NCBI RefSeq assembly: GCF_026571515.1 | Contig: NW_026864813.1 | Coordinates: 248,001 to 312,000, forward strand | DNA from: Ruditapes philippinarum | Lineage: Eukaryota | Direction of reading: 5' to 3' | Length of the DNA stretch: 64,000 nt | In this document: piece after piece, positions 8,701 through 64,000 of the stretch | Position numbering within the stretch: the stretch's first letter is position 1 | Layout of the letters: each line of letters starts with the position of its first letter | Translations under genes and position numbers: made by a program | Notes under the pieces: model-generated | The model's database searches: none | Told to the model about the DNA's origin: nothing | What the model saw: the letters and a program-made list of their open reading frames with translations, nothing else

Positions 8701-11700
8701 AGAAGATGTTTCATGCCAAATATCTTAGCTCTAGCTCTTTGGGTTCTTTAAAAGAAGATTTTTAAGTTTTTTCCATATGCATATAGGGAAAATCAATGAC
8801 CCCCTGGGGCGGGGCCAATTTTGACCCCAGGGCTTTTATTTGAACAAACTTGGTAGACACTCACTAGAAGATGTTTCATGCCAAATATCTAAGCTCTGTC
8901 TCTTACGGTTTTTTGAAAGAAGACATTTTTCTTTCGGTTGCCATGGCAACCAGAGTTCTGCATGGAATTAAATTCTTTGAACAATTTTTAAAGGTGACCA
9001 CCAAAGGAACATTCCTGTGAAGTTTGGATGAAATTGGTTTAGTGGTTTATGAGGAGATGTCATTTAAAGTAAAAGTTTACGGACGGACGGACGGCGGACG
9101 GAAGCCGGACGAAAAGCGATCACAAAAGCTCGCCCTGTCACTTTGTGACAGGTGAGCTAATAATTGAATAAACAAGCATATTACACTTTCTGCTATAATT
9201 ATATGAAAATAACAGTTACTTCAGACAAAGAAATATGCAGGAAAACTTCAAAACTGTTTTAAACACTGGTTACAAAAATAGAAACAGTTAAACAACCTTA
9301 GATATCATATCACATCAAGGTAAATTGATACTGCATTTTATCACATATAAGAGGACTTCTGGGAAAACACAAAGCTATGGAAACAAATGTATGGGGAAAA
9401 ATAGATTAACCAGACTGTGTCAACAATGATATTAAGCATATGATTTTAATAAAGTGCAAAATGAAAACATTATTTACTTCAATCAGTTTTATCATAGTTT
9501 TTACTATTGGAACTGTTGGACTAATACTATTGAAAACATGTCAATAGTATTAGTCTTATACATATATATGCACAGTGCGTTAACTGGAGTGCAGTGTTAG
9601 TTACTAGCACTCACTGTATGTCTAGAGCATGCCGGTTGATTGGCTCATTTTTTTTCTGGGGTTTACTTATTGTGACAACAGGAAAAGAGATAACGATAGA
9701 AAAGTCATATTCAGATGCTCTTACATTGGTTACTTTTTCTGGGTTTAAATATTTTGATGTCAGGGAACTGTTTTTATTTTTGCCTTCGATACAATGATTT
9801 CAAAACTCACAAAATAAGATAACTTATCATGTACATGTAGTAAGAAGATTTACTTTTGTCTGATTTATATTTAATTTTCCATATGTGTTGCGCTTGATAA
9901 TAAAATTGAAAAAAATTAAGCAATAATTAAAAGAATACATTTTCATGAACTATTTTCTGGGTGCATATCAACTTTTTGCTCGTTGTTTTCATAAGGATAT
10001 CAATGGTATTCTGATTAATCTGGTGGTAAAGACTTACCTGGATACAGAATGGACAGGTGGTTTTACTGAACACCATCACCTTGTTCTTGCTGGTCAGGTC
10101 ATTGATGACCGCTTTCAGATCTGGTGTTGGTGGCATCTTGCCCACTGTGTAAGAGACGGGTGAGCCTGCCCGCTTAATGGTGGATGTAAATAAATCTGAA
10201 AAACAAAAATCCCATTGTTGTAATTTAAGTTTTATGTATATATTTCATGATTGTACTGTGTTGTATTTATATCATGAGATGTCATTTACTCTTTATGCTA
10301 TAAATCAGGGGAAAAAAACTAAATACTGTTGTAACTTATTTCTTATAGGCCATCAAGTTAAGACAGTTTTCAAATACAAAATGTATATATGTAGTGTAAA
10401 CCCTAAATCAACATTCCTCCCCCTTATCATAAATATATTATTTACTTGCCCTTAAGTGTATCATGGGTATATAAACTTTCCTATTTTAGCAGTTAAATAC
10501 TAAAACGTAAATTCAAATTCTATGTTAATGAAAGAAAGAAGGCCTCAAAATTTAAAGTCTTGTCTTAAGTCCATTTGTTTTTTTTAAATAGGTAATATTT
10601 AGATAATTCCTGCCTATAACACTCTCGAGAGGGGTTGGCAGTACTCATAATTGGATGGATGGACGGACAGAAGTTCTAACAGGACAGTAATTATCAAGGC
10701 TACTCTATTGTTCTCTCTATTGTTCTTTTTCACGCCCGTTTAACTCACAACGAGTGAAAAATGTCCATCGGTAAAAATGTTGTGAGCAACTTCCGTTCCT
10801 CGTTGTGAGCACCCATCTATGACGTGTGACACGATAAACAAGGTAAGTTTTTCATAATTTTTGAAGATTACAGACATTTATGTAAAAATATCGGAATGCA
10901 GTTAGCTAGCGATGTGTTTTCCGAGTATGCACATGTAAAGATATTGCCTGTTGGTGGACAATTTGTTGGAAATACCGTGCGACGCAGTCACTCGGGGTAG
11001 CAGGAAAACTGGAGACAACTTCTCTTTGGACCTAATTTAACATTGAAAACGTTGATTCTGGTGACGTCAGAATCGATGTTTTCAATGTTAAATTAGGTAA
11101 CTGCATTCCGATATTTTTACAAATGTCTGTAATCTTCAAAAATTATGGAAAACTCACCTTGTTTATCGTGTCACACGTCATAGATGGGTGCTCACAACGA
11201 GGAACGGAAGTTGCTCACAACATTTTTACCGATGGACATTTTTCACTCGTTGTGAGTTAAACGGGCGTGTTTTTAGCCACACAAAAGAAAATAGCCACAT
11301 AAAAGCATTACAGAATGAATGACATCAAAGAGAAAGAACAGTAACCTATTGTCCCTCTAGCCACATTATTACTGTCTCGTGAGAGCGGACGGACGTGCCA
11401 CTTAAATGGACTAAGGGGCCATTTCTTTTGTTATTTTCTTTTGTTTAATAGAGGGCCATGGCCCCTTATTCTATTGTTACGGAATGAATTCTATTGTTCC
11501 TCTTTGTTCTGTATACAGTCAGATGGCCCCGTAACTTCTCTTAAATATCCCCCCCCCTCCAAATAAAAAGCAGCAAAAAAACAAAACACAAAATAAAACA
11601 AGAGGGCCATGATGGCCCTGAGGTCGCTCACCTGTATATAGGCCCCCCCCAACCCCCCCCCAAACGTTGCAGGGCCAATTTAACCAAAGGGCTTTTATTT

Positions 11701-19807: not shown

Positions 19808-20228
19808 GAAGTTTCAGTTTTTGACATTTTCAGCCGGTGTGTACTTAACACTTGATTTATATCAAGATATTTTTAGATTACAACTTTAATCGAGTAAATA
19901 TTGTACAAGGAAAAATGAATGAATGAAAAACAAAACAACGCTATTGCCCAAGGCCATTTCTAAAAGACTAGCAAACCCCTTTAAATTGGGGATGTTAACT
20001 AATTGGCGATGTACTGGTTTTTCATCTACATCTACATTATACTGCAGGGTTTTCTGTTGGTTACAGATTAAAATTTCATTCAAATGTCTGGATACTGTAT
20101 AAAAATAGGTTGTAACCTAAACTGTTGTGATTAAAAAAAAGAAGAAATTTATCGTATATCCGTAATAATTTCATAATTATTTAGTCGCTATCATACCAGG
20201 CTACTGTACGAATGCCAGGCAAACTCTT

Positions 20229-21270
20229 TTGCGTTTACTTGAGGATGGAACATACGATACGTATAGTACATCCCAGCTTGAGGACTGGAAGATGGCGTTC
20301 TTGAAAGACAGAAATGAGCATTTTGCAGCAACCCTAATGGGTCCGTCCAAGGCTTTTGACCGTCTACCGCATGATCTCACAGTCCACAACCTAGGGGCAT
20401 ATGGGGTGCCTGAAAATGTATGTGGTCCAGTTTCAAATTATCTATTTAACAGTAAACAAAAAGTTAAAATAGGAGAATCCATTCTTGGGCCCTTGATCTT
20501 CAACATCTTCATGACTGATATCTTTTACTTTATAGACTTTTTAACTCATTTGTTTTATATAAAGTAAACAATGTAAATTAGTTATAATGAGGTGATATTT
20601 CAGTAAATATTGATCTATAAGTCCACCCTTTACAGTTATGCATATATGACAATACTCTAGCCTTCTCCAACTCAAACTTAGACCTAATGAAATAAAACTT
20701 GGAAAATGAAAGCAAACTAGATTAATATTAACTGGTTCAACATGAATAAAATGCAACCTAACCCGCTCATGTTTCAACAATGTCAAATTAATAATGTAAT
20801 AATAAATTGTAAATATTGTGTGTAAAACTGCTTGGGGTAGACATATACTTTTTTTACTTAACTTTTATAAACAGATCACCAGAATGTGTATCAATTAAAT
20901 GTGCTTTTAAGAATAAACGGTTTAATTTGAATTCAGAATGTTTACTTCTTGTTTATAAATCTTTTATTAGATATAACTTTAACTGTTGTCCATTGAAAAA
21001 AGTAAATATGCTTACTCTACATTTTTAAATCTAGAATCAAAACGTGTTCAAATACAGTCACGAAAAATCACCACCATAATTATATAAGATCGTTAATGAT
21101 TTCCTAGTAGTTCAATTAAAAAAAATCCAATTACTCTTTTAGGTATCAAAGAAATGTAGATATACCGATGGTCAAAACAGTATCATACGGTAAGAATTCT
21201 TTTAGGTTTGAGAAACAGTATCCCATATTACACCGAAAGGTTGAAAATAACAAAGGTTTTAAAGAGACTT
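20229..21270 (+). mobile_element. Decayed LINE (CR1/L2-like) reverse-transcriptase fragment
   Basis: Motifs (L)SKAFDRLPHDL...LGAYG, ILGPLIFNIFMTD and VKLLGVDI...LVYKSFI are broken by deletions and stops. Confidence 0.8.
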
Positions 21271-23699: not shown

Positions 23700-26600
23700 A
23701 TGCACACATTCATTCATTTTTTATGTTTAATGGTTTCGCCATTTTTACCAGGTAAGTGATATTATTATCATTATTATTATTGTTATTATTATCCTGAGGA
23801 AAACTTTATGAATATATTTTATTAATTTTATGAAAAATAGACACACGTAAAGATGCACCGAAGGCAATTAAAACGAATCAGTCACTTCCCACTAAAGTGT
23901 TTACTTGGATATATGTACGACGTATATATCGACGTTTTATATATATTTTAGCATACCTTATGCATTGGAAATAACTTAGGAAATAATCTCTCCCACCATG
24001 TCATCATGGAACATGAATGGAGCCTATTCAGAAATGAATAAATTTTTACTCCTACATAGAAAGGGCCTCAAAAGGAAGAGGGCGGGGGGGGGGGGGGGCA
24101 AAAAGCCGTCAAAACACATCTATCTATATGAGGTGAAAGGTTAAATGAAACAAACTTTTGATGGCATCTGTTTATAATGTAGTGTTTTCAGATTATCATG
24201 GTCCTCATAAATATAATGAGTAATTTATCGTACATGCTTTTTATCTTTTGAGCACTACACTGTGAGCTGCATGTATAAGAACTTATCGAAATGTCTGACC
24301 ATACTCAATATTTTTAGACCCACAATTCAAATACATGTAAAAATGAACATCCCCATGCTGCCATTGGCCATAACTTAGGATAAGTTTGTAATGTACATTG
24401 CATAGAGTAAGAATTTAATGATCTATTCTTTTTTTTTTCAGTTCAGATCAGTTGCTCCTCCTCGACAGGTGGATATTGGAAGGAATGTAACGGCGTGTTT
24501 TATTATTTTAGTGCTAAGAAATATAACTGGGATGACTCTTTGCAATTTTGCGGTCATTTAGCAGACGACACTCATGTAGCTGACCTTGGCAAACAGCCGG
24601 TAGATTTAGCAAAAAGTTGTAGCTTTGATTTAAAAGACAATAGGCAATACTGGATAGGTAAGATTTAAGGATCAAAGATTAAAGATCTGTTGAAAAGTCC
24701 AAGTATTTATTTTTAAATTTTTAAAACATTACATGCATAGAAAAAGTTTATATTTTTTCGATTTTATTCCATTTCTTTGAATTGTTATTATGTAAGTAAC
24801 CTTTAGTTATCTATATTGGTTTTAGATATAAAATGATCGAACGTTATTCTTATCTAGACATTCAAAAAGTGTAGACGTCGATCTAAAATTGATACTGTCA
24901 TCCTTTTTTCCGTTAGAATGCTGGTACGGGCAGGCACAGAGCGATTGTACAACATTAAAAAAGCAAAGGCAAAAATTAGAACGCCGTCTAACATCATGCA
25001 ATACCATCGCATATCCTATATGCGGAACAAGAAAAAGGCCTATCAAAGCACTGCCAACAGACAAAAAATCAACACCCGCACTAACATCGAAGAAACCTAC
25101 GCGCGCACAAATAACAAAAGGCTTAAAAACCACATCAACAACGCATGTTCAGGCAACAACATCTCGAAACACGGTGCAAGCAACAACAAAGGTAACACAT
25201 GTACCAACAACAAGAACGTTAACGCGTGCGCCATCAACAAGAAAATCTACACGGACACATACAACAAAACCGACCACACAGGCACCGATAACAAGAACGA
25301 AAAAGCATCTGCAAACAACAATAAACTTAACACAATTGTTTTCAATAAGAACAAAGAAGCAAACGAATACTCCAAAACCAAAAATGTCAAAGCATGTAGC
25401 AGCCAGTAAAAAGTCAATGTTTCCGCCTACAACAAAATTGTCAAAGAACGCGCCAACAGCAAAAACGTTAAGCAATGCGGCAACATTTAGAAATTCAAAA
25501 CATAAGCAAACAATGAATAAGTCAAAGTCTATGTCAGTAGCTCGAAATATAACGCATGCAACCAAAACGGTAGCGATCGTACCAATAACAAGACAGTCAT
25601 TGCACACACAGACAACAAAAACGCCAACAAAGGAACACACAGAAATAAAAACAACAGAGACACAAACAGCAAAACATACAACAGAGGCACAGACAGCAAA
25701 ACATACTTCATACTATCAGCAAGCCACGTGGAAGACAAAAAGGACAACAACGACAGTGCCGCCAACAACAGGAACAGGCATGGACAAGATTTAAATAATA
25801 AATATAATAATAAAGTTTAAAAAATGCGTTTTATATCTTTCATCTTTGCTCGTGAATTTACATTTACAAACTCTGTCGGGCTGTTTAAAATAGGTCACAT
25901 TTAAGACTTTAAAACCTGTCAGATATAAATGCGCTAGATAACAATATATATTCATATATAGATACTCTACTTTATCGAATTTACTCATTTTTTTTCAGAT
26001 TATTCTTGGGTTCGAATCAATACAAGTGAATATTTTGTCAACCATATATTGTACAATTACACTTTTGCCAGAGAGTATTGCATACGGACAAAGAATGCAT
26101 TTCTTATGACGTCACTAAGTCCTGTTCGCTACATTCAAATTCTGTCTCGACTTAATCTACGCGACGGGAAATACTGGATCAAAGGTTTGTGAGAATACTG
26201 ATTAAGGGGAGTAACCGTTGCAAGGAGTTTGTTATGAGGTTGTAAATTTTTACGCTATTGTAAAAAATAATAACGGGAGCAATGACATTAATTTCAATGA
26301 AAAAATGTTTTAATGACGTAAACCATTTAGAAAAATGCTAGAATATGTAAACAAATATCTGCAAGGGATTTGCGGCTATGATCGGAATATCTGTCCCTCG
26401 TTACCGCCAAAGTTGCGGGTACCCTCTAGACGGATAGTCCGATCCGAACTGCAAAATATGACAGATCTTCTTATTCTCGTTTAGCTCTTTTATCAATCTT
26501 ATTAAAATCAGCTCTAAATAAGGTTCCGCATTTAGATCTGACCGCGACCAAATACGAAATCATTTCTGGTGACATTGTACACAGCCAATCATCGGCGAGC

Positions 26601-28072
26601 TTTCATAATTTCTAATTTTAACCTCGGGAAAACCAATGCTGAGTAGGTGATTTTTATGATTTCTAGAACAAACATGGCAAGTTGGCAAAAACAGTTTTGC
26701 CTAAATTATCTCTATTTTTACAAGTTTATTTGTTAAGAATTACTTTAAATAATTTTATTAACAAAAATCAACAAGTTGTTTGACGTTCACGGATAATTGT
26801 ATTTTGATAGTTCTTCTAATGTCTATGTTAAAATCAATTTGATTGCATGGCTAATCGAGAAATCCGAATTATAAGTTATGGAGGCGAAACATATACGGTT
26901 GTCATCAGATCTACATAAAGAAATAAGTAGACATGAACTTTATTCAGATTTGTCTTTAAATGTGGTTTGACCAACATCTGCATTAATATTTTAAAAGAAC
27001 TATAATTACATCGAAAACATTACACATATTTTTCAGTGCTTTGCAAGTACATGACATATGTGTATATTTTTTCCATCCTTTTGCTGACCGGCTTGATCTT
27101 GATCTAATGAATATTTAATTTTCTGAAAAAAAGAGAAAGAACAATAACAGCATAAATAGAGCAACAAAAAGCAACAACAAAAAAACAACAACAACAACAA
27201 CAGCAACATGAACAATAACATGAAACAAAAAAAAAACCAAAAAACAAAACAAAAAACACAACAAAACGTTAATGCGCACTGCTGTTTCTATCAGGATACA
27301 ATATGTTTTTGCCAAATAACATTGTTTGGTTTGATGTTTGATATCTGGAAAAAAATTCCATATTCTGCTTCCCTTTCTTGATCTTGTTGATATTTACTGT
27401 GATTTTGTATCGTATGTTACTGTAAAGTAAGCAAAATGAAGAAATTTAAAAACTAATGATTACAATTCAAGCTATATTTTCGAGAAAGTGAAACAAATAC
27501 GTATATTTTCAAGTCATTTTATGCTTATTTTGAAAACACGGATAATATTACTGAACGATATAACCTGTATCAAGAGAATAAATATAAGTGATGTATCAGT
27601 TGTGATAAAATGAATAGTTATAATTTCAGCTCATGACAATGCTCTTTCTGCCCAAGGATGCCTCACATACGACAGCCTGAAACGGTCATTATCCCAAAGC
27701 AATTGTTCACGAGCGTTATATAGCGTATGCAGTAGGTCAGTGTTTGGTAACAACGACACCGATATACTAGAGAACGCTGTCTTTAAACAAATGTTAAAAG
27801 ATATGACCCTGGATAGAACGAACACAGCCGTTAGTAGACGACATCGGATGAGCATAAATAACGATCACCGTTGGTCTGTGAGAGCTACTGGGGTTATTGG
27901 CCTGCTAATTATTGGTGTTGTTATGGGTTTAATGGTACTGAGTGACTTGACAAAGCTAAGTGGTTGTCAGTGTTACAGGTTGTGTAAATGTTGTAAAAGA
28001 ATATCTCGTACGTCGAAAGATAAAAATTTAAAAATGTTGAACAAAAACCCGCAAACTTCAAGCCAATGCTGA
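23700..28072 (+). CDS. Gene A: type-I membrane protein, SP - C-type-lectin-like domain - Thr/Lys-rich mucin stalk - CTL-like domain - basic juxtamembrane motif - TM - Cys-rich tail (~585 aa)
   Basis: Exons 23700-23751 (MHTFIHFLCLMVSPFLP), 24442-24657 (WKECNGVFYYFSAKKYNWDDSLQFC...YWI), 24917-25777 (C..C..SCNTIAYPIC plus mucin), 25999-26184 (YNYTFAREYC...YWIK), 27630-28072 (CLTYDS..NCSRALYSVC; TM GVIGLLIIGVVMGLMVLSD). All introns phase 1; intron 3 needs a GC donor. Confidence 0.8.
27150..27270. repeat. (AAC)n / A-rich low-complexity tract in intron of gene A
   Basis: aacaacaacaacaacaacagcaac...aaaacaaaac. Confidence 0.75.
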
Positions 28073-32495: not shown

Positions 32496-35400
32496 TTATC
32501 CTCCTGCGTTGCCATCTCTTACAGGACTGGACTTTCTTTGTTGTCTAAGGTGCTTCCACATAGATTGCACGTGCTCTTTTGTCATCTTGAATTGAACTGG
32601 TTCATACTTGTACGGTTTGAGGTGGACATCTGTCTCATCCAGTTCATTGTCTGTTATAATGTTTGCTGAAAGATAAAAACATATATGAAAGAAAATTTGT
32701 TTTATGTGAATGAAAATAAAATCTCGCTTAGAAAATGATAAGAAAATAATCGCAATATTAAATTATGTGTTATTCCTATCTTCCCCATCCTATCAACCCA
32801 ACCATAGCAGACATACACATTTAGAAAATTGCATACGTAATAAATTTAACCATGCACCACAGATAAATTTCCGGAATTTGAAAAGGATTCTATTTCTGTC
32901 ATATCAAATATTTGCATATACACATACAGATGTCTATTCATTTTTTACAATATTTTCTATGTTTAGGTTTAAGTATCTTATCACAAAAAGAGCAGAGAAA
33001 TATATAGCTATGGTGAATAAATTTGTGTTTTAATCGCAGAAGCTTATGATAATAAATAACATGCAAATGTGCACTTTCTTATCGGTAACGTTCATATTCT
33101 TTCGGGTAATGTATTCACTTTATTTCCATACCCGTGCCGCTTTAACGACTCCGTAAAAATGGTATTGCCTTTTCAATACTCGCTACAGCTGCTAAGTGAG
33201 GGTAGCAAATTTTACGAAATCATACGCAGTTATCTGAACAACAAAAAGAAGAGCGGGCAAAACATCTGCCATCATTTAAATTAAAACCAGGTTTCTTACC
33301 GCCTATCCAGAAAGAATTGGCTTTAGAAACGGGATTAGAAAATATCCTAAAGTAATTAACGAAACTGCTGGTTTGCTTGTACACGCTGCAATTGTAATTG
33401 ATGAAGTATTTCTTCTTGCCAACTTTAAGCCAGGCTGGTTCTCCTATTATGTAGAAAAGGTAATTTAATTATAACAGAATTATGATGTCCAATGATAAGA
33501 AATTAATATTTTGTTAACAACAAGAAGATTTCGGAATAAATAAAAAAGCAAGCATGTGTTTTTCAAATATTTCATTACATTTTATAAAAAAAGAAAAGAT
33601 TTGAACTGAAGAAATAAAAAGTGCAGAGCTTACCCGAAGTTTTAGATAGAGCAAGAGTGTTTACTTTTGCTTTAAAATTTATTAAAGGCTTTGTAGTGCT
33701 ACTTGATGAGGTATATGTTGGCTTTGTAGTGCTACTTGATGAGGTATATGTCTGTTTTGTAGTGCTACTTGATGACGTATATGTCGGCTTTGTAGTGCTA
33801 CTTGATAACGTATATGTTTGCTGTGTAGTGCTACTTGATGACGTATATGTTTGCTGTGTAGTGCTACTTGATGACGTATATGTTTGCTGCGCAGTGCTTC
33901 TTGGTGACGTATATGTTTGTTGTGTAGTGCTACTTGGTGACGTATATGTTTGCTGCGTAGTGCTTCTTGGTGACGTATATGTTTGTTGTATACTTGACTG
34001 TGTTTGAGTTGTCGTGCCCGGTTTATCACTCATGCAGAACATCATAAACTGAAACTGTGCACTTTTATTGGCTGCTATATGCACATAAGGTCCACTGTAT
34101 TGCATAACACTACCCTCCTCCTTACCCGACGGACACGACACACCTAAAAAAATTAAGGAACAAATTTGAGAATAAACTGCGTTTCAATTCACCAAGAAAA
34201 ATATTTTAAGACATGTACAACTTATTTCGAAAAAAATCCCACCCCACCCCCCAAAAAAATACAACAACATAGAATAACTCTTCTTTTTCGTTTGTATTTT
34301 TCTGGTCGGTCGTACATATACCTCATTCAAAACTTATTAATAGCAAAAGGATGGGTATCTTAGGCAGAAAGAAAAAGAACAAAAAACTAGTTTTAGTATT
34401 TAAAGAGAAATATTTAGTGCCACCCCTTCGGTAGAAAACGCAATTGAAAATCATAATAGTTTAAGAAATAACATCAACTTTGTTAGTATGGCATGGAGAA
34501 CCAAAATAAAATCCATTCAAAATCAGTTATCCCTAATATCAATTCAGCTTTGGAATGAATTATCAATAAATTTAAGAGGACCAGACACTTGAGCAAAGTT
34601 TAAAAGAAAACTGAAAGAAATGTTTAAATCTTCCGTCTTTTTTATAAACAGTGAGCGTTCACCAACAGTACACCACAGACGCCTTAGAAATAATTGCAGG
34701 AGTTTTAATTCCGACTTGTATAACAATCATATTGTTCAAACAAAACCAAGCTTTTGAATGTGGTGCTTTTAAATTAATAGAAGACACTGAACATTTTTTT
34801 TTATTTCATTGCCAAAACTATACCATCAAAAGATAGATCATTTTAGAAATACTAGAGAATTCTACCCTCTCGGGACAGAAAAGTTACTTTTTGGTGTAAA
34901 TACTTTAAATGTTTCTCAAAACATGTCCCTCATTTTATTAAAGAAATGAAAAGGTTTCGATAATTTAACATCATTTTGAATTTCTTTTTTACTTTGTTTT
35001 TATAATTCTATACAAATTGATATTACTATCGTCAATTGTTTTAAACAATAATAAGAATTTTTTCAGAACCCTCAAAAACAGAAAAAAAAACTTTTAAGGA
35101 AAATTGTTTGAGTAAAAATATTAAATTCTCTTTAATCCACAGAAAATTTAAAAAACTACAAATAGCTTTTTTAACAAAAAAATTTTCTTGTAAAAAAATT
35201 TTACATGGAAAGTTCCGGTTTTAAGTCTTGCGGGCCCCCTATAAGTATTTTTCCAGAAAAAACTGAACATTTTTTTTTGCATGTTTTTAGTAGAACATAA
35301 AATAAAACCCTGTAAACACTTTTAGAAAAAAAAAATTCAATTAAAATTGAACATATTTTGAAACTGTTGACTCAACATTAAATTGGAAATTTAACATTTA

Positions 35401-37098
35401 CTAAAAAAACGTTAAATTTTTAAGCGAAATTCTTACCAACCCAATTTTAACCATTTTTTAGGGTTAAAAAACCCCAAAAAAAACCCATTCCCCATTTTTT
35501 TTTTTATAAATGCCATCCCTTTTAATTTAATTTTGAAATTTTTTTTCAACATTTAATCTTTAAAGGATTAAAATGAAAATTTTTTTCTCGGTAAAAGAAA
35601 ATTCATTTTTTGTTTAAAAAAGAAGTTTTTAAAAATAAAAAACACACGCAACAGAGGGAAAGTATAAAAATTTCAGAAAATTATTAATTTACTTATTAAT
35701 AAGTTTTTTTTTCGTTTTTTTTTCTATTATTAATGTTTTAGTTCTCAGTATAAAATATAATATCATACTTTGCAAATGTCTCTTTTTTACATTGAAGTTT
35801 AGATAACATTACAGTCAGCTTTTTATGGGAGGGGTCAAAACCTTTTGAATATTAAAAAAATGATTGAATGAAAAGGAAATACCTGGACTGTTTAACCAAA
35901 ATTCGACTTTCATGCGTCCTGTTATTCCAAGCTCTTTGCCCAAAAGTCCCATATAAGTGTAGTTTCCGCCAGCAAATAACTGACCACGCATTTTGTTTTG
36001 GCATTGATATTTTGCATGACAATAGGTGTATTCAGTGCGAGATAACTTGTAATATAGCCCTTGTCCACCAACTCTAACCCAATCTGAAAAAAAGTAACCC
36101 AAGAGAAATACAAAACTAAAAAATCAAAATTTAAGAATTTAAGAAAAATTCATTACTTATTGATTAACAATGAACTGTTTGCATGAACCGAGTAATTTTA
36201 TTAAATCATATAATTATCATTAGCTGATGAATGGCTTGTTATATTGTTACACAGCGGATAGATCTGACCTAACGAATCTACCACTTATTTTTGCTTAGCC
36301 TGTAAATAAACATCAGCCAAAACTTCATGCATTTTATTTTATTAATAAGGAAATGCAGTATACGACTAACTCGTATATGAACAAATTTACTTAGTTCTCA
36401 ATCTAATCTTAATCTTCTTTAATGATATACAAATCACAGAAATTCAAACAAGTAGTTTATTATACATGTATATAATTACTATATTTTTGTAAAAAAACTA
36501 CACCCAACAACCAAATGAAGTTTCTTTTAAATTAAAACATCACACAAACAAGCCGATAAACCAGCAGGAATGTTAATAAAAACATATTTCAGTACATTAG
36601 AATAGTTTTTTTGTAATCTTTTCTCAAATTAGAGTTGTATAAAGAAGATTCCATCGATTTCAAACGGAAACAGAATATTAATATATCAAGAAGATATTAT
36701 TTTGTGAAGTAAAGTGCTAACCATGATTTAATGTGTGACTACTGTTCGATGTCTTGCAGAATGATTTTTCTTTTTCGCAGATAGGATTCATAAATGACGA
36801 GCATTGTTCATTTTGGTTAATGGCCACATTACTTCCATCGAATATAATTGTCCGGCACATAGGCATAGACGGATCTGTAATGTATATGGAATATGTAGTC
36901 ATTTTATTTAAATTTGAATTAACATGATAAATATAAATTCCGTCTAATATCATTTTAATCAATTTCAGAAGCCAGGTAATTTGGACGTGCACGTAGAAAT
37001 ATATTATTGCTGTTCTTCTGATAATGACACAGTTTGAAATGTATTAGTGATAGTGAGTTCTAGAAAAAAAAACTACAAAGATGATTATTATTATTATT

Positions 37099-37136
<38 letters not shown>

Positions 37137-38470
37137 AATAATGATGATAACAATAATAATAATATTACTGATGTAACATTAACAATGGTGATCTTAGTTT
37201 ATTGCGAGCATAAGCTGTTTTTGTTCCACATATACACCTATTTTCTATTGAAATAAGGCATAATACGCCTTGCTTGTATAAATCGATTAACTGAATGTGC
37301 TCTTTCTTATTACGTGCATTTTCGAGATTATGTATACATTAGTCAAATACAGTACGATGTAGCCTTTGGCCCTGTTTATATCAATATGTAGTTTCATTAG
37401 TACAATGACATTAAGTTATTAAATGTGAAAGATATTGCTCACATTCCATATTTATCCAGTATGGTGTATGATCTATCTTGGAAACGTGACATAGATTAAA
37501 CAACTGTGCAATGCCTTGTGACGTCATGGAACCTAAATCTACTGGTGCACTTCCAGACAAATTCCTACAATGCCCTATTAGGCTGTCATATGGCATTGTG
37601 ACTTTATCAAAATGGTAACACTTGTCCCTGCATGCATGCCAGCCCGAATTTTGCCCACATTCTGAAACACGAACAATTTTCAGTATGCATACTTGGAATA
37701 AAAATACCAAGAAAAACAACAAAACAACATAAAATTTTATGCAATATGGAAAATGGTTATTTACAAGTCATACTGACGTCAATTAAACGTCAAACGTATA
37801 TAATGTCAAATCGTTGATTACTCGCTAAATGCAGTTCCCTCCTCCGTTTTGAAATAGAAATAGAGTTACATAGTCTAAAACTGCAATGTTGAAAATAATG
37901 CTGGCGTAGTTTGATTGAGCTTGTTCACAGTAGTGGTAAATGAAAGCTACCGTTCACATCCCTAGCAACAGCGTAAACAGAATGCAACATCTAAATAAGA
38001 AATTGTGAATTTTTTCTTTTTTAAATATTCGTTATAAACATTTTCTCCGATGGTACATTTTGTATTTATCTTTGCAGGTCTAGCGAAAAATAGAAATATA
38101 TTAATTACATCTATTATATAAATATAATTTTATAATACTACTATATCATACAAAGAATATTGCCAAGATCTTGAAATTAAACAAGTAAAAAGTGAAGTGT
38201 GTATATTATATTCATCAAAATCACGATCTATCAGAACTTTCTAATCCACCCATACCATTGCAGTTATGTTAAAAGGCAGGTCATGACTCCATCATGCTTT
38301 ATGTTAAAACATTTTACAATACATTTTCCCTTTAAATGATAGTCGACAAAGACTTAAATAGAAATGATACAAAGCTTTAATTAATAACAAATAAAATCTT
38401 TAAAAATGAAATTACCACATGTCCTGATGAGGCCTGCAACAATTATGACTCCAAGTACTGTTGCAATCAT
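32496..38470 (-). CDS. Gene B: secreted multi-C-type-lectin-like protein with Ser/Thr repeat spacer and unique C-terminal tail (~483 aa)
   Basis: Exons 38470-38416 (MIATVLGVIIVAGLIRTC), 37661-37443 (WHACRDKCYHF..HC..PYWI), 36874-36722 (MCRTIIF..CSSFMNPICE), 36083-35883 (YTYCHAKYQC..FWL), 34143-33634 (C..GPYV..MFC plus repeats), 33443-33300 (WLKVGKKKYF..FWIG), 32665-32496 (TDNELDETDVHL..). All GT-AG, phase 1, total 1452 nt in frame; no TM segment. Confidence 0.82.
33688..33992 (-). repeat. Coding 33-bp tandem repeat (~9 x QQTYTSSSSTT) in gene B exon 5
   Basis: gtagtgctacttgatgacgtatatgtttgctgt unit repeated. Confidence 0.92.
34430..34970 (+). mobile_element. Decayed 3' end of a CR1-like LINE in intron of gene B
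   Basis: Translates in pieces to ..WNELSINLR..TLSKFKRKLK.. and ..ECG..EDTEHFFLFHCQNY (LINE ORF2 C-terminal zinc-finger region). Confidence 0.65.
37080..37166. repeat. Compound microsatellite (ATT)n(GAT)n(AAT)n
   Basis: Directly visible. Confidence 0.9.
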
Positions 38471-42609: not shown

Positions 42610-45600
42610 TTACTGACTGGGATTCCTTTGCTGACGAAGGTGCCTCCACATAGATTGCACGTTCTCTTTTGTCAACTTGAATTGGACTGGCTCATTCTTG
42701 TACGGTATGAGGTGGACATCTGTCTCATCCAGTTCATTGTCTGTTACCATATAAGCTGAAAAATTGATACAAAATCACCGTGTATATCCAGTAAGTCACG
42801 AATGTGCAAATAACGCAGGAATTGTGCAAACGTAACGCAAAATTGTGCAGTTTTGTGGCCAAAAGGAGTACCACGAAAAAAATGAACCAATATTTGTTTT
42901 TTTTATTGAAAATCAAATTTAAAGAAATGAAAAGCGCATACAAATGTTGAGATATTATGTGTTAAACCTCATCTGAAATATTTCCATGAAAGTTGTTTTG
43001 TGAGAACGATGACAAATCTATTGGTGGCGACTTTATATAATTACTGATATTATCAAAACAGTAACGTACCTATTACACTATGGTTTTTGATATTCAGTGT
43101 ATCGGAGACTTTTGCTAAACTACTCTGGTGATATTACACTTAAATAAGCAGATACAATATAACTATGAACGGTTTAAAGAGGTAACGCCGAATTCGTAAA
43201 TGATTCAACGAAGCAACGCTGGTTACCTTATCAAAATTACCTGAATATTATTTTACGTACTTCGTTCTATTGTTATTCGACACCAGTATTTTGGCAAATG
43301 TCTATGGCTTTCCGATTACGAAGTAAATAAAATTTAAATTGCGTTAATGTATTGATTTATTTCGACGAAACACTGACAAGCAGTGAGAGTTAGTCAGCGA
43401 GTGACACACATTGAGTGTTAGTGAGAAAGAGGCATACAGTGAGTGCTAGTCAGTGAGTGATATCATACAGTAAGTGATATAATGTGAGTGATGTAAAGTG
43501 TTTTATATACAGTACGATATATAAATTATATTTCACAGATTTATTTTAGAAATAACTGATATAACTACTGAGAAAATGACAGTATGAAGCTTATTCAATT
43601 ACATAATATTTGCTACTATATCAAATTACAAAGTAATAATCATATAACTTATAATTGTAACTTCCACCGTTGATTAATATCACATAATATAAAGAAGATG
43701 ACGGCGAAGAACATAGTGATTTGGAAATGGCAAGGGAGAGTACTAAAATAAAGTTATTATGAGAACCTTTCTTAACCAATATTACAAGTGTAACATTTTG
43801 CTAAATTGTGTCTGTCCATGAAATCAAAACTTTAAATTATAATCTATTACAAGGGTATCATTTATACAAAATTATAAACCGCAGAATGTAAATAATCTAA
43901 TAAAATGGCATAACATAATTGGTAAAGTATTTGCAATTTTATAAGGAAACATTCACACTTAATTTAATAGTATACATTTCTTACCTCCAATCCAGAAAGG
44001 ATCTGCTTTTGATACGGGGTTGGACATTATTCTGAAGTAATTGATGGAGTTGTCTTGCTTGTTCAAAACTGAGGTTGTAATTGACGAAATACTTCTTCTT
44101 GCCAACTTTTAGCCACTTAGGTTCAGCTTTATCTTGAGTAAATATGTAGTAAGATAATAGATATTGCTATAAAAATTATAAAAAATGAAATAAACTAGAA
44201 AAAGCCATGTATTTGTATTCTTTAAGTGACATTATGCCCATCCAAGGGTATATAGTGAGTGAACAGGTGAATATCAAAATAAGTTACATTTTGCTCCTTT
44301 TAATTTAATAATTTACTTCCAATAAACAATAAATAATGCACAGATCCAAATAAATTTTAAGTAAATATCTATTAGAATTTACCCAAAACGTCAGTTTATA
44401 AAAAGAGTGGGACAGTCTTTTTATATTTTAGGCAGATTCATAATTTTATCCTGAACGTTTTCCAATATCAACTGTTGGTCACAAACACCATTTTAACAGT
44501 CAATCTGTTGAAATATAAAGTCAATTCAGCTGAATTTGACAACGAAAATATGACCATAATATCACTTTAACATTCAAATCTGAAAAAGTGGCAAAAAGGG
44601 CTTACCCGACATTTTCGAGAGAGCAAGCATTGCTGTTATTGCTTCCGGTTCTGGCTGCCATTGAGGTCCAAATTGCGATGATGAATGTGATTGCCATTGT
44701 GGTTTAGCTTGTTGTTGCTGTGTTGAATGCCATTGTGATTTTTGACTTGCTGTAGTAGAATCAGACAGTGTTTGTCGTTGTGGTGTAGATTCCAATGGTG
44801 AACTGCCATATGTTGTAAATGACAAGGGATGTTGACGTTGCGTTGTAGGTCGTAATGATGATATTTGTTGTGGTAAATGTGACCATGTTGAATGCCATTT
44901 CGCTGTAGATGGCGATGTCGTTAGTATTGTTGACGTTTTTCTTTCACACAGCATTTTGATACGTGCATTTGCTTTTCTCGCTTGTTCGACTTGAACATAC
45001 GGTCCTGTAAACACTGTGGTATTTCCTGATCCATTGTTTTGTGGGCATGTAATGCCTAGGTAAAAAATGAATAAAGATATAAAAAGTCATGAAGAAGCAG
45101 ATCATAGTTATAATATCAATCTATCTAAGGAATTATGGGCCTGAAATGTGGTAGATTTAGTAAATAGGGCTTTAAATGTACGATATTCATGTACATCTGC
45201 GTTGAAACATTTTTGTTTTAGCTCCATTTTGATCTCGGCCTTACAATATTTATATTTTTCATATCGATTATATACTTATCACTACAAGTTGTATGTGAGG
45301 TAACATGGACATCAACAAAGTAGGATACCTAGGCCGAGATCTTAACCATTTTACGAGTCCTAGTCCTCATGATATATTTAATTTTTAAATAATACTAGTA
45401 TATAACTAATCTGAATCAATATTCAAACATAGCACAAATTGGACAGTTTCTCAAAATAACTAAGTTGAATAAAACAGTACCAGTATTCACTTATCAAATT
45501 TTGGATGACGATACCGTAAGTGACTTAAATAGAATTCGAATATTCAAATATATTAGAATTTAGCAAACCAAATATTCAAGTAATGATTTTGTATTCATTC

Positions 45601-48600
45601 CAATCCCCAATTTAAAGCATTACCAGAATTTTTCAGCCAGATTTCGAGAGTCATCATTCCAGTCAATCCTAATTTCGATGCTAATATTGGCATATATAAA
45701 TTATCATTGGGTGTTACCATAGTACCATACCACGTTGTTTCACATAATTGTTTGGCTTCACAATACGTGTATCTATTCTCAGATACCAAATACGATGTAT
45801 CGTTTTTTCCTATATCTATCCATTCTGTGAATATAATATATACAAACAAATAAATATTGTCATCAATATTGACCTGAATCTGATTAATTGTCATTAATGT
45901 TTCATAATTCAAGTTACACAATGGGTGATTTGCATGCACAATAATAAAGTTTTCAATTTTCGCAAAATATAATGAAGAAAGAAAAAAAGATATATTTAAA
46001 CCATGTATACCATTATACCATACATTGAAAAATGGAAGATTTACTTCGCAATCCGATAATTTCCGGCAAAAGGTTATTCAATATTTCAATGTTTCCGGTC
46101 AATATTGCCAAACAAAATACATGTATAATAATTTAATAATCATTAATTACATTAAAGGAAAGTAAAAAAGGAAGAAAAAAAAAGAAATTAAACATTGTGT
46201 TCCATTCATTTTGCCAATATGATAAGATAGCATGTTAAATAGTATTTTAAAACCGTATTTCTTTATGATCAAATAATATCAAACAGTATTCAATGTAACA
46301 CCTACATTTATTGAAATAAAATCATATTTATTAAAGAAAATAAATGTACCATCAAATTTCAAGGTATTGTTTGCAGGCAGATGACACAACGATTTGTTCG
46401 TCTCACAGATGGGGTGCATTACAGAAGTGCATGACACATTTTCTTCTATGCTTACATTATGTTTGGAAAATGTAATCGTCCTACAGACACCGCTACCTGT
46501 AATGTGTAGAAATAATTGGTAAACAATACGTTAAATATAATTAAAGAAATAATAATATTAATAATTATTGTGATTGTATTAATAATAATAACGAAAATAA
46601 TAATAATGTACATATTTAAGCCCACAACCAATTTGCAAATTTTGCAACTGTCGACGTTATTCTTGACATGCCATTTCCTAGTACTTTATATGTTAAAATA
46701 TACTGAGGTTTCCGGCCGCTTACACATTTTCTCCTCTGAATAGCAAACGGTTCGAAACCGCGGCAGGTTGATTTCAAAATATTGTTCACATCAACGTATC
46801 AAAAATACAGAAAAATATCAATATTTCGCTTACCATACTGGCTTATCCAATATGGTGACTGTTCTAATTGCTCAAATAAGCAAGCAGACAACAACTCCTG
46901 AATTTGTTCCTTTTGCTTTGATCCAAAGTCCACTGGTTTACTTGCATGTCTCGAGAGACAGTGAGAGGGCAGGTCTTTGTAAGTTATCTGTGCTGGACTC
47001 ATAAGGTAGCATGTGTCAACACATAACTGCCATTGCCATGTTCCCCTATTTGTGTCTGCACCTATATTTAATTAATAATCTTATATCAGTTTTGTACGAA
47101 AAATTATAGCATGAGACAGACGTTAAAATGTGATACACATTAATGTATCACCTCTTGAATGGATGGATGAATTAATTAGAAATAGAATAAGTAATATGTC
47201 TTTGTAATTTTGTTTTGTTTAAATAAGCTATTGAAATACTAGTTTATGAAGATATAATAGAGGGATTCTAAACAAACATAAATAAAATTGAAAAGTATGA
47301 AATAACAGATCGTTTATCATTCTTTTGACGTAAAGACATAAAATGTGATATTCTTAAGAGCTATCGTTATTTCACACGACAATAAAGCTCGAAAACAAAG
47401 TGAAAAATGCGGAAAAGCACAAAAAGTGATACGAAATTGTGCGACTTTGCACATTTTTTTTGCTTTTAATTTGGCGTGACCAATCAATGGCAAAAGGCGT
47501 GGACGTCTAACTTCACGTCACCATCCCCCCACAAAAATCCCGTTATAACAACCCTTTTTCGTCCAATCGATGCTATAATGAATACAAAATGAGCAACAAC
47601 ATGCTGTTACAATGAAACTTGCAAAAGAATAATATCTTTTTGCCCCTGCCGCCTTATGATTGGCTCTCGGCCAGCTTTATCACTTCGTGTAACCTTTTTT
47701 TGTATTAATACGGACTCGATTGTTGAAGCTTAAAACTTAATGTAATAAATAGAGGATATTGAATGAGGGTAAGTTTAATACTGAATTTATTGAACGAGTT
47801 GATGCGAGGCTCTGGCGAACATTAGATTTTTTATTCGACGAGTTCAATAAATTCAGTTACTGTAATGAACCTACACGAATTTAATATTCTATTTATTACA
47901 TACCAAAAATAAGGACCGAAAAAAAGAGTCATTTTTACATTGACGCGCCTACTTATAGCGCTAAAATTTAGCGCGTCTTTACACTATGTTTGTATAACGC
48001 TAATGACATCACGTCAAAATATATATGCACGGCCGTGCAATACAGTTTTACAGAGTCACAATCTCGGCACAGGTATGTGATAAAAAATTATCATTTAGAT
48101 GTAGCAATGTCGAATCTATTAAGCGCCTTTCGGATCGTGTTTCCGCGCTTTAGCTACGCCTTATTACACTTTTGTATTGCCCTTCGTGGACTTTCTTTGT
48201 TGCGTTAAATATATTTGAGATATTAATATGAAATTCTTACACTGCTTAGAAGAATGAGCAACAAATAAACACAGAAAATTTCATGTGAGTAGCTTCTTAC
48301 ATTACAACAATATTTAATTTTACATAAACACATGTCGGCGACAGCGGCTTACTCCAAAAAGTTATTGACGTCAACATCATAATATTAACGTACAACTTGT
48401 GCTTCAACATTACGCAGTCAATGAATGTTACTGCTTCTCAAAGTAATGTCCATCACTAAATTTCGTATGCCACTTTAACATTAATGATCGTGAAATTCTC
48501 TTTTCTCTGTTTGTCTGCTGATTTTTATCAAATGTTTTTGTAGGTGTCATTCCCAAATTACAACAAAAATTTATGATCGTTTTATGATCGCGCGATTTTC

Positions 48601-59072: not shown

Positions 59073-62000
59073 TTAGGAGGATTTCCTAGTTTTAAGTTTC
59101 GATAGGTCTGCTAATACAATCAGCAAAACAATTGCACACAGAAAAAGTGCACTGAATACACCAATTGCTTTTGATGATTGACGCGTATCTTCGGCACTGC
59201 CTTTCTTTCTCCTATTTCTTGACGTTTTTTTCGAATCGACAGTCATATTTTGCAGTAATTCCATGAAAATTTTATCGTTTTCCAGATCGTATGTATTTGA
59301 TTTGTTACGTGAGGAACAAATACAGATACCATATTGTTTGTTTTCACATGGTATTGAAGATATTGTTTCATCATATGAATTGTAAGATAGACAATCCCTC
59401 TGTATGTTCTCATCAAGGTAACCATGATCTGTAAAAATAAGCATCACTATTATTCTCAATTAAACAAGTATTAAACAGTAATAAGGATACAACAATAATA
59501 ATAAAATTCGATTATGAAAAAAAAAACATACCAAAAACACCGGCCTTTAAACTAGTTATATTACTGAAATAACTATACTGACTTTTTAACAACCCGTTAA
59601 CAGGTAGTACCTGGAGAAATCCAACATGAACTCTACTTCATGGATAATCTTTTTGTTTTATTCCTGTCTATATTAAAGTAATTACGTTTATCTACCTTTA
59701 ACCCAAAACGAGCCGTTTCGCAAACTCCATGTACGCAAATTTTGAATGTATGACAAACTATTGTGGACAATCATTAATGATGCATTGAATCGGCTGTGAC
59801 AAATCCTATCAGATTCGGTGTAGTTATTCTTATCATACAAAATGACAAATTCATTGACCCCGCTGGTGATTCTTTCAATCGTTACATCTTCTGCAGAAAA
59901 TGATATCACATTTACTAAGAGCTATTGTTATTTAGCAATGGAGACTATAAATCTAAAAGTGGAGACTGTCTTATGATTTATGTGTTACTGTGAAGGATAG
60001 TCTAACTATCGAGGTATGGTTCTAAAAATTGGAATAATGACTGAATGGAAAATATACTACTTATATACATTGCACTTACTAAGGCAATAAAAAATAAGCC
60101 TTAACATGTTTATCGAGAAATTTGGATGTTAGTATGGGTGATATCAATTTGATATAAAAAAGACAACAAAGATCATTTGGCACAACGTCGTTCACAGAAT
60201 GCAGCACCAAAACAGACAGCTGCATTAGTCGATACATAGAAAACACTCAAAAATACGGAGGGTGCACAAGGGCAGAGAACAGAAGGGACGGACCTGCGAA
60301 TAACTGTTACAATTAACATATGTATAAGTGCAAAGTCAGTTGGATGTTCAATATGAATAGGGGCAACAAACAATAAACACCGAACAATCCCATGTAGTTG
60401 AAAATATAACAACATTGGTGACCTTTTACAGCAGAAACACGTAAGAAAACTATTAAGTCTAGCTTTCGGAGTTAATGTAAGATGCAGATGTTACAGGGGC
60501 GATACAAATAACGACAAAGATATGTTAAAAATAAGATTGAAGAATAAAATTTATACTAGCGATAGCATCCATGGTTAGCAGAAAACTTATTTTTCGGTAT
60601 AAAGACAGTTAAAGGGATATAATTTTTACTTAAGGTATATAAATGTTTCTATGAAGTTTACACATAATACAAATATACTCATTAAAATTTGGATAATACT
60701 CTGGGGAATAGAAGTCCAACTTCTGAAAATTCTATTTTTAATTTGGCAGAAATAAATATATATTTAAAGTCTAATTAAAGTCTCACAATAAAGAATATAA
60801 GACCGGGACATTTGTTTTACTATGCAGGATTATTTATGAATGGGGAACATAATGTTGCAATGATATTAAAATTTTATTTAGTAGTTTCGCACGGCTGTAT
60901 TTATTAATTCCAGTGACATATGGTTTTCATTTAAATTACATAATTATATTAACATAACTACTGGTTACCTTTCTTTTGTTCGACCGAATCCTTCTCGCAT
61001 ATACAATGAGTTTTCAGTGTGCAATTAAAAGTGAACGGTTGAAACCGCGCTCTTGAACACCCAGTCTCTGTTCTGGGGCATGCCATTAATAATCTGCACA
61101 TTGATGCGTCCGTTGGCGTATGTAAAGTTTCGCTGACATTCACCCAGTATGTCTTATTTCTGTCTAGCTTCTCTCCGAGCAGTTTTGCCGGATCATTTGA
61201 GACATTGTGTGCCACAAAAGAGCTGATGTTTACACAGTGCTGCGAGCATTCGGAATACCCCATTTGCGCTATGCTAATATTATACTCAACGGACGGAAAC
61301 GAAATCCATTCAGATGCTTCAAGAAGACAGAAAAGACAGAAAAAAGATAAAACATAATATCAATTACAGAAAAATATATTGAAATGTATACATGTATAGG
61401 CATACAGATTAATGTTACCAACACTGAAATAAATGTACACAAATAAAATCTTAGAAGTAACATGATACATTTGTACATTGTTTTCTTTATATTTTGGTGG
61501 TCTAGATAATACAACTGTATGATAGGCTGGCAGTATTAGTCCGATTATATCCCATATTTATAACATTTTTTTATATCCTAATGACACTTTGAATTGTTAA
61601 TCATTAAAAAAAAATATTTGCGCACACACACTTAATGTTTACAATTTCTTAGTAAATTAAATTCAAATGTTATTGCAAGTTGTACTTTGATGTAAATTAT
61701 TTCAAAAGTGAAAGTATATTTCAAAATCAATCTACATATCCAACATTAAATCAATGCACTGGTTTCATGTCCCATTTCTGATACTTACATTAATTTCCAC
61801 TTCTATCTCCACCTCCCATAACGCTCGGTCATGCAGACGGACTGATTGCATCAACCGTCGGATCTGTTATAACATTTACAAAAAAATAATACCTTTGTAT
61901 GTCGAGTTGGATGAGTCATTGGTGTTGTAATCACTTTCACAGATAGCATACCCTTTGGTCAAGCATGATGTATTATGAAATTCAAAGTGTCCTCCATTAC

Positions 62001-62865
62001 GTTTTACAACTTGACATTGTGCATTTTTTCTTTCTGTTTTTACTGCAATATTTTAGTTAATTCTATTATTAAATATAACTAATATAAATCATGCATTAAA
62101 TTCACATTCAGGTGGTGTTGTTTGTAAGGATACTGTTCATTGTTAAACTTGATCCAATAACATGTATAGTTAAATACATAACCAATCACTTACATATTTA
62201 TATAAAACTATCTTTCATGGCCAAGTGGTTAACGTCGTTTACTTCAAATCACTTACGTCACACCGCTTCAGGTTCGTATCCAGACGGGGACTTGCATGTG
62301 AGGAAGCTAGCAAGCAAGCTGCCGTTTGTGCCTAAAATGATGCTCGGAAGGGCACCTGAGGTCTTTCGAATTCTCCACCGGTAAAGTTTAAAAGTCGCCA
62401 TATGACCTATACTGTGTTCAGCCGCGTAAAACCTAACATAAATAGTTTTTATGCACTAACAGTATATGTTCGCTACAATGGTTTTGAAGTGTATCAGTAT
62501 GGACCGTTAAGAATCTTTACACATTCGTATCAATTTTATGTACATAAAACGCATTCATTTTTCCGTGTTTGTCCAACCGTATTTATCAATATTTAAATAT
62601 TATATGAAATAAGATTGAACTGTATTAATTTACTTACGGATCCAGTAATTTTGTTTATTTTGCAAGGACACATTCAATGACACATTTGGGCATGAACCAT
62701 CCAGATTTTCGATAAAATTTGATGGGGATTTACTAAAGTTAGCCACATTTCCAAGACGCTTATCACAATATTGGACGGAATCATTGTACGTCTGCATTGT
62801 TTTTCCAAAATGAAAAGACCTGTTCAAACACCTGTGCCAGTTGTCATCTATACAATTTAAGACAC
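59073..62865 (-). CDS. Gene E: type-I membrane protein with three C-type-lectin-like domains, basic juxtamembrane motif and TM; signal exon uncertain (candidate 63490-63457)
   Basis: Exons 62865-62638 (WHRCLNRSFHF..YNDSVQYC..YWI), 62042-61893 (QCQVV..TSCLTKGYAICE), 61316-60969 (whole domain, YSECSQHC..YWV..C..NCTLKTHCICE), 59890-59696 (NYTESDRIC..FWVK), 59428-59073 (CLSYNS..PCENKQYGIC; TM IGVFSALFLCAIVLLIVLAD). All GT-AG, phase 1. Confidence 0.82.
62218..62445 (+). mobile_element. tRNA-derived SINE in intron of gene E
   Basis: A box TGGCCAAGTGGTTAA, B box GGTTCGTATCC, body with gcacctgaggtct...gccatatgaccta shared with the 6.3-kb and 14.2-kb copies. Confidence 0.8.
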
Positions 62866-64000
62866 CTGCAGTGACACATAAAATGATCATTTAAGATATA
62901 TGCATATAAAAATAATAATACGAGTTACACTTTAAATTGCTATAATTCTATAATTATAGTGGCAATTAGTTTTCAATGACTATATTAATTTAAGGCAACA
63001 ACTTGGAATGTTTCATGTTACCCGTATATAACTCTAACGGCAGCAAGCAAACAAGTGACAGAAACATACTCAAAATTCAATTTTTCGTTTCTAAAATGTT
63101 TTATATGGAAAAAATGACTCAAATATTTGACAAAGTCGATTTTATTTTCCATTTAAGGAGGAATTATTACTTAAGTACCCTAATTCTTTGTTCAGTGCAG
63201 TCGCCTCTCTTTCTTATTCATCCGCTAAAACATTCCTAACATGTTCAATTAGATGTGGCAATGTGCGTTTAAATATTAAAGGATTTTATTCAAACATCGA
63301 ACATTATTTTTCAAACAGCCAACGACGATGACAGCTATGGTTCCTTTCTTCAATCGGCGGGGTTTACTGCAGATACTGGCACTGTATATCTTTCCTAATG
63401 ACACTATTGGTACTAAGTCTTGTTGCATCTTGGATAAAAAACATCACTTTTCTTACCAAGGCTTGTCGCCACGGCAAAATGTATAAGCACCTAACTTTTA
63501 ATTTCTAATGTCGTATTTAGCCTTTTAATCATAACAATGAAATTTAAGGTGTTTAAGCTTGTCAAATAATATCTCATCCACACAATACATTTCCCACTCT
63601 AACACAGGATTTTACATTGCAAATGCCAACAAATAACTGCTAAAAATGAAGTATTGCTAGATATATGTACAATATATTACTATTCGAAAATGGTTCATTT
63701 TGGTACTCGTTCTGTTATACCTCTGCATTATATAAATGCTGTTAAGAATTTTTTTCTTATTGTTTCTAGATGATAATAAATTATGGTATTTTATATTATC
63801 TCTTTAATTATACAAAAGGTAAAACATACGGAATCCTAAAATTTAGCGGTCAAACGTACTGCTAACAATAGCCTGTGTATCTCGATCCTAGTCGTAAGAT
63901 GCATTTAAATGATTCAGAAATTGTATTTGATAGTTTTGTTATTTCGCACTGGCTTCGACAATCAAATACAGGATCCTAATTTAAAAAATCAATAATGATT

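Follow-up and report, generated by a model that had tools for sequence, protein, structure and literature searches.

The window analysed here, a 64,000-nt stretch of Ruditapes philippinarum DNA (contig NW_026864813.1, positions 248,001 to 312,000), carries two lectin-like genes, A on the plus strand and E on the minus strand, whose predicted products end in a shared block composed of a juxtamembrane part and a transmembrane (TM) segment, hereafter referred to as the module. Three exons of gene A are delimited by contig joints and hold an open frame: 24442..24657 (the N-terminal part of a first, divergent C-type-lectin-like domain), 24917..25777 (the end of that domain, followed by a basic, Thr/Lys-rich mucin-like stalk) and 25999..26184 (the N-half of a membrane-proximal lectin-like domain). 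The last coding exon (27630..28072, +), behind a phase-1 acceptor, supplies the C-half of the second lectin-like domain, the module with its TM, a tail and the stop codon. Exon joints of gene A were found in the contigs of 4/4 runs, which are guessed rather than recorded to be RNA, and the GT..AG joint 26184/27630 leading into the module exon was found in 3/4 of these presumed RNA runs. Read through the joints, the frame stays open and encodes, in order, a lectin-like domain, a basic Thr-rich stalk, a second lectin-like domain, the module, the TM and a Cys-rich tail. A script scan suggests a candidate signal-peptide exon at 23700..23752 (+; 17 codons plus a phase-1 G, with a consensus donor); it has no contig depth, and in the contigs 24442 is preceded by a G, which is what an upstream exon of phase 1 would leave there. 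At the start of the 41-residue tail lies a Cys-rich basic stretch (27965..27994, +) of the kind that would be expected for a palmitoylated cytosolic tail.

The stalk of gene A (24917-25777, +) is unusually rich in Lys and Arg for a mucin-like region, and it varies between runs, with many substitutions, a 27-nt deletion in run X4 and a 54-nt duplication in run X2. The intron that follows it (25778-25998, +) is of the GC..AG type and was bridged in 4/4 runs; a library protein identical to the module of A (P0046) begins only after this intron.

Gene E (59073..63067, -) was assembled as an inferred exon chain from ORF scans and BLASTP to A. Its exons comprise a candidate signal exon (63021-63067), lectin-like exons at about 62633-62866, 61879-62052, 60961-61359 and 59691-59890, and a last exon with the module (all -). 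No Pfam match was obtained for exon 24442..24657 alone or for other single lectin exons of A and E, and the lectin label of both genes is suggested by a W/C pattern, which for exon 24442..24657 we take to be lectin-like, together with the paralogs; the same exon matched the first lectin exon of E by BLASTP at an E-value of 0.002.

The module of gene A occupies 27761-27958 (+) within the ORF 27614-28072 and can be divided into an acidic/hydrophobic helix, an L-T-V-D-type segment, a basic helix, a D-x-R motif (27863-27871), the TM (about 27884-27943) and a terminal Asp (27944-27946). Its basic helix is atypical, with a one-residue insertion and without the R-K-L-x-S-A found elsewhere in the family. 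In gene E the module lies at 59094-59288 (-) within the ORF 59073-59459, with RNRR at 59208-59219, D-x-R at 59181-59189 and the terminal Asp at 59106-59108, and is followed by a tail of 10 residues; the library holds a protein (P0023) with 93% identity to E. A sequence-only reading of the window had noticed this shared block, with its TM-closing Asp, and had judged it better conserved than the lectin domains. Both peptides are present as they were read, the Asp is found in each, and the last-exon ORFs align with 36/103 identities (BLASTP E-value of 2e-16). Over the roughly 60-residue block, 24/65 positions are identical (37%), compared to 16/67 (24%) for the first lectin exon and 10/40 (25%) and 18/61 (30%) for the C-half and N-half of the last lectin domain, so that the ranking holds per lectin exon; one local stretch of 44 residues in the N-half (A exon 25999..26184 against E 59691-59921) reaches 41%. 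When the window was searched with a profile built from 24 copies of the same genome, only A and E were matched (80 bits for A, itself a member of the profile), the next match having an E-value of 0.55.

Outside the window the module is abundant. When the own genome was searched with three single sequences, 25, 60 and 62 matches were obtained at an E-value up to 1, all of them lower bounds. Their union comprises 73 places on 46 contigs, 48 of these places being found at least twice; some are haplotype duplicates, parts of split exons or weak matches that are unverified. The 24-copy profile matched 2,668 clusters of a protein library (clustered at 50% identity) at an E-value up to 0.001, and 1,053 at 1e-10. 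Thirty representatives were looked up and 26 could be named, all 26 of which are molluscs from four classes: bivalves, gastropods (Lottia, Bulinus and Pomacea), Octopus and the chiton Liolophura. As these are the top hits of a bivalve profile, the tally does not settle the range outside Mollusca. Matches in the ESM Atlas were unnamed clusters, most commonly from Mollusca, with no usable match among its named clusters, and word-indexed homologue searches proved too insensitive (11, 1 and 19 matches) to inform on range. A single query against viral contigs gave 77 pattern matches and no confirmed one. The statement in the sequence-only reading that similar ends occur in many mollusc proteins is borne out, and matches extend far beyond the paralogs A and E.

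None of the named families searched covers the module. Pfam matches of the A and E ORFs were all below gathering cut-offs; among 24 members the best Pfam E-value was 0.0029, with no family common to more than two members, and the best NCBIfam E-value was 0.006, the families hit being unrelated and each matched by one or two of the 24. PDB sequence searches gave no significant match to the module. Look-alikes with basic residues before a TM, namely a GPCR loop-TM6 segment (E-value of 0.31) and an archaeal pilin N-terminus (0.36 and 0.64), were rejected as not significant. No description of the module was found in the literature searched, with subscription journals, InterPro, PANTHER, CDD and SMART outside the scope of the search. 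The passages searched in two papers on bivalve C-type lectins (PMC10140915 and PMC12842671) mention TM domains and no conserved juxtamembrane motif. Portable juxtamembrane anchors are a known kind of element; the mollusc module appears to be unnamed and to fall in none of the tested families, as had been suspected. We conclude that, as far as sequence comparison can tell, it represents a real, large and apparently undescribed mollusc family.

Across the family the module follows the consensus helix-L-T-V-D-K-x-x-T-S-x3-R-K-L-x-S-A-x-D-x-R-x-S-S-x-x-I-G-x-x-G-TM-D. Family statistics were taken from the best 150 of the 2,668 matching clusters, a set ranked by a profile that already holds these residues, so conservation in it is overstated. 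In this set four positions are near-invariant (D35 in 149 members, and R37, G44 and D62 in all 150), and further conservation is seen at R28 (134), K29 (106), L30 (96), S32 (134), A33 (122), S39 (134) and G47 (124), as well as in the columns L16, T17, V/I18, D19, T/L23 and S24. No indel occurs across columns 16-62 in 146/150 members. Own-genome copies held out of the profile agree with this, D35, R37 and G44 being present in 9/9 and D62 in 6/6 of those whose exon reaches it (one further row, A itself, was dropped). Small residues occupy TM positions 40, 44 and 47 in 94%, 100% and 98% of members; in the TM helix these positions (S40, G44 and G47) lie on the same side as R37 and D62.

AlphaFold models of the module of E (95 rows) and of a canonical member (133 rows) reached a pLDDT of 83.6 and 84.3 and a pTM of 0.42 and 0.41, respectively. 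They agree in placing helices at columns of about 7-16, 24-30 and 38-70, with a loop at 31-37; R28-K29 lies inside the second helix, and a long helix runs from column 38 through the TM and past D62. The low pTM suggests that the module does not fold into a compact monomer, which would be in keeping with the need for a partner; a flexible, protease-accessible linker would fit this too. Foldseek gave no match against PDB, the best hit of a VIA fold search (Z of 4.7 at an rmsd of 10.8) involved long helices only, and a viral structure library returned nothing better than an E-value of 1.8. A coevolution analysis over 178 rows yielded no usable contacts, its output being dominated by the invariant columns and one subfamily.

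Several features support a type I topology. Full-length members begin with hydrophobic leaders, as judged by eye, and have a single C-terminal TM with a short tail (median of 21 residues after D62, quartiles 16-31). Glycosylation sequons account for 94/234 Asn residues on the N-side compared to 20/149 in the tail (P of 1e-8, not corrected for kinship), and Asn15 is followed by S/T17 in 40/46 cases. Membrane proteins usually follow the positive-inside rule, and the module runs opposite to it, with a net charge of +3.2 outside and +1.0 inside; because of the enrichment of sequons on the N-side, and despite the higher outside charge, the basic segment is probably lumenal. The tails also bear on the notion that the module directs GPI attachment, in which case the omega site would fall in S-A-x-D and the hydrophobic stretch would be removed. 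A C-terminal hydrophobic stretch is indeed preceded, at a distance of about 10 residues, by small residues (S, A and D). GPI signals, however, normally stop at that stretch, without a charged tail or invariant residues, whereas here charged tails continue for a median of 21 residues after the Asp, and in A for 41 residues with a Cys cluster. We consider this reading extremely unlikely.

The sequence-only reading had interpreted RRHR in A (27836-27847) and RNRR in E (59208-59219), each of which does match R-X-X-R, as a furin-like site, and the module as a portable sorting and shedding element resembling the furin site and TM propeptide of ZP proteins. The furin consensus is given as R-X-R/K/X-R and a relaxed convertase motif as (K/R)-Xn-(K/R) in PMC3545927. 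The site in E is indeed a strict R-X-R-R and that in A a minimal R-X-X-R. Across the family, [KR]-R occurs at columns 27-28 in 73/150 members and some dibasic pair in 128/148, and the relaxed motif would fit most members, so a relaxed convertase of that description could cut many of them, and single members such as E may be cut. Yet R-X-X-R within 14 residues before D35 was present in only 9/148 members, compared to 11.4±2.9 in shuffled windows, and the strict R-X-[KR]-R in 5/148 (two rows with indels dropped; counts over related members, not corrected for kinship). Own-genome copies carry R-X-X-R in 4/24 profile members and 3/9 held-out ones. Conservation peaks at R28 (3.6 bits) and K29 (3.1 bits) and not at the P2 and P4 positions before R28 (1.4 and 1.8 bits), and what is conserved is an Arg-Lys pair with a Leu behind it, the pair being placed inside a short helix by both AlphaFold models. 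A and E are two atypical members with regard to R-X-X-R.

Nor was a ZP domain seen, either among the Pfam hits of 60 scanned members (best five families per protein) or in the exons of A and E. The ZP propeptide, with its furin site, external hydrophobic patch, TM and tail (PMC4219815), resembles the module in having basic residues shortly outside a single C-terminal TM of a secretory-pathway protein. It differs in that the mollusc module occurs without a ZP domain or conserved furin motif, behind many unrelated ectodomains, and with the invariant D-x-R and TM-ending Asp. Furin cleavage as the family-defining function was rejected, as R-X-X-R is no commoner than after shuffling; the comparison to a ZP-like propeptide is likewise not supported, and we regard that whole model as very doubtful. 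The portability claimed for the module stands; the furin site as a feature of the family does not.

Processing by site-1 protease (SKI-1/S1P) or a similar enzyme was considered as another explanation, in which a cut after R-K-L-x would free the ectodomain and leave an S-A-x-D-x-R-TM stub. The S1P consensus, R-X-aliphatic-Z in PMC9113161, is matched in register at columns 28-31 in 80/150 members and so suits the family better than the furin motif; 17/24 own-genome copies have R-x-hydrophobic-x-S/C, and the S-A that follows R-K-L-x resembles the proBDNF site described in the same source. The remaining 70 members, A and E among them, do not fit the motif. The aliphatic position is basic in 36/150 and aromatic in 15/150. 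The candidate site would moreover sit within a predicted helix, and the invariant D35, R37, G44 and D62 are left unexplained by this reading, which we hold to be rather unlikely.

A further explanation would be a eukaryotic counterpart of the prokaryotic sorting signals GlyGly-CTERM, PEP-CTERM and LPXTG; these too are motif-TM-tail units, present many times in a genome on proteins that share homology in that region alone (PMC3237569). One intramembrane enzyme would recognise D-x-R-x-S-S-x-x-I-G-x-x-G-TM-D on dozens of proteins per genome and cleave or re-anchor them. The combination of a motif, a TM and a short tail at 73 places in the genome, on members alike only at their C-terminus, is reminiscent of such signals, and small residues cluster at the outer end of the TM. 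In contrast to those signals, the module is an animal element of about 60 residues, with two extra lumenal helices, a basic cluster before rather than after the TM, a tail of variable length (median again 21 residues) and no NCBIfam match, and the dedicated co-distributed enzyme is hypothetical. The likeness is one of analogy and not of homology, and the reading as a whole seems improbable.

What precedes the module varies widely. Among 60 of the best 150 members, chosen at about 200 residues or longer, 26 had a Pfam match at an E-value up to 0.001 and 34 had none; Lectin_C was found in 17, PAN in five, Sushi in four, F5/8-type domains in three, and Ig and PLAT in one each (with combinations in some members, and a few matches under the curated cut-off). 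The module is C-terminal, behind any of these six domain types or mucin-like regions, in agreement with the earlier view of it as a portable C-terminal element. A Ser/Thr-rich stalk is present in 30/46 library matches with long upstream sequence, and a CxC-type motif just upstream of the module in 69/101. A tree of 39 modules was poorly resolved (4/36 branches starred); for the lectin label and for the Sushi label alike, its starred branches require two or more changes, which is consistent with repeated exchange of ectodomains. Two module matches occur in 6/150 proteins, and two of these, when read, look like fused tandem gene models. A tail-to-tail pair of module-bearing last exons, about 1.2 kb apart, was also noticed elsewhere in the genome (L005, G000:C8137, about 787300-788900).

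By a heuristic, confirmed only for A, the last exon usually contains the complete module and follows a phase-1 acceptor. Some paralogs (L045, L050, L054 and L031) carry an intron at the invariant Gly44, inside the first helix or in the TM, so the module appears to have gained or lost introns in subfamilies.

We suggest that the module is an old, mollusc-wide membrane-anchor domain of type I surface proteins, and give about even credence to the proposal that it acts as a structural anchor and that a single membrane partner common to the family, or the module itself, recognises its D-x-R loop, the small-residue face of its TM and its terminal Asp. An ectodomain (lectin, Sushi, PAN, Ig, F5/8 or PLAT), often on a Ser/Thr stalk, would lead into an N-glycosylated lumenal helix; after it would come a short helix of basic character and then a loop of fixed length, S-A-x-D-x-R, that caps the single TM helix. 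Arg37, Ser40, Gly44 and Gly47 would line one face of this TM helix, together with the invariant Asp62 five turns further on, at the cytosolic interface, beyond which an amphipathic extension and a short variable tail would follow. Together, the TM face and the D-x-R loop would form the binding surface for the partner, which might be further copies of the module, forming an oligomer, or a subunit for trafficking or signalling that the proteins share. Such a partner would bring a wide range of recognition domains to the cell surface, and the basic residues would be part of the binding surface and not a required cut site; members without any basic pair do exist (P0073). The fixed spacing over four mollusc classes would seem to exceed the need of a linear protease site, although a processing enzyme might just as well recognise such a signal of invariant residues, and release of ectodomains by a protease other than furin is possible. 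The partner, the oligomer and the destination of the module proteins are all inferred.

Conserved units between the membrane and swappable ectodomains or mucin stalks have precedents. The SEA domains of membrane mucins and the GAIN/GPS domains of adhesion receptors are portable juxtamembrane modules as well, and are compact, folded and autoproteolytic. The mollusc module is shorter, is predicted to be helical and extended, includes the TM and has no Pfam match to either. In integrin beta (a membrane-proximal Asp), basigin (a Glu in the TM) and the FXYD proteins (the motif and a TM Gly), a conserved TM binds a partner; the invariant charged residue in or at the end of the TM and the small-residue face are shared with the module, whereas Pfam and PDB searches gave no sequence match to these proteins, leaving a working analogy.

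A more far-reaching version of the shared-partner proposal, which we entertain tentatively and as something less than probable, is a many-to-one sorting system, in which a single dedicated membrane factor (an enzyme, chaperone or signalling subunit) would recognise the tag on lectin, Sushi and mucin proteins, dozens of them in each genome, and display, cluster or release these proteins. If true, this would amount to a swappable repertoire of surface recognition on one anchor, kept since before the split of chitons and shelled molluscs and comparable to bacterial sortase tags, only in an animal. More generally, if one partner reads the module, it would control a whole class of mollusc surface lectin-like and mucin-like proteins, with a likely bearing on immunity, feeding and mucus biology. 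The four near-invariant residues (D35, R37, G44 and D62) make the mechanism open to direct testing. In any case the module gives one point of access to a very large number of "uncharacterized" mollusc surface proteins and merits a domain entry of its own.

Two further genes of the window, B (32499-37767, -) and C (42613-47071, -), resemble, exon by exon and by eye, the module-bearing copies L056 and L057 just beyond the window end. Both end in a short exon without a TM and are possibly paralogs that are secreted or in decay; apart from B and C themselves, this tail matched just two copies on contig C10457. A truncated module at their ends was rejected, with a best gapless score of -5.9 (rank 88 of 45,162 sequence windows) against a family minimum of 18.4, and no DNA-level likeness to module exons was found there. 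In a copy of gene C on contig C10457 (L061), an in-frame hydrophobic stretch behind the last-exon stop is faintly like the TM region of A; scored as a decayed module it reaches 4.8 bits, a value attained by 121/500 block shuffles. The corresponding stretch is frameshifted in gene C of the window.

Other features of the window include a tandem array of a 27-nt repeat at 165-1371, with several frames open and 9-residue units containing His, Cys and Pro, a glutaredoxin-like exon at 9930-10244 (-; E-value of 0.008, below the Pfam cut-off) and a reverse-transcriptase fragment at 20169-20564 (+; E-value of 0.0006, below the Pfam cut-off). Inside the lectin gene cluster itself lies an ionotropic glutamate receptor-like gene (51295-54397, -), with Lig_chan and Lig_chan-Glu_bd both above cut-off.
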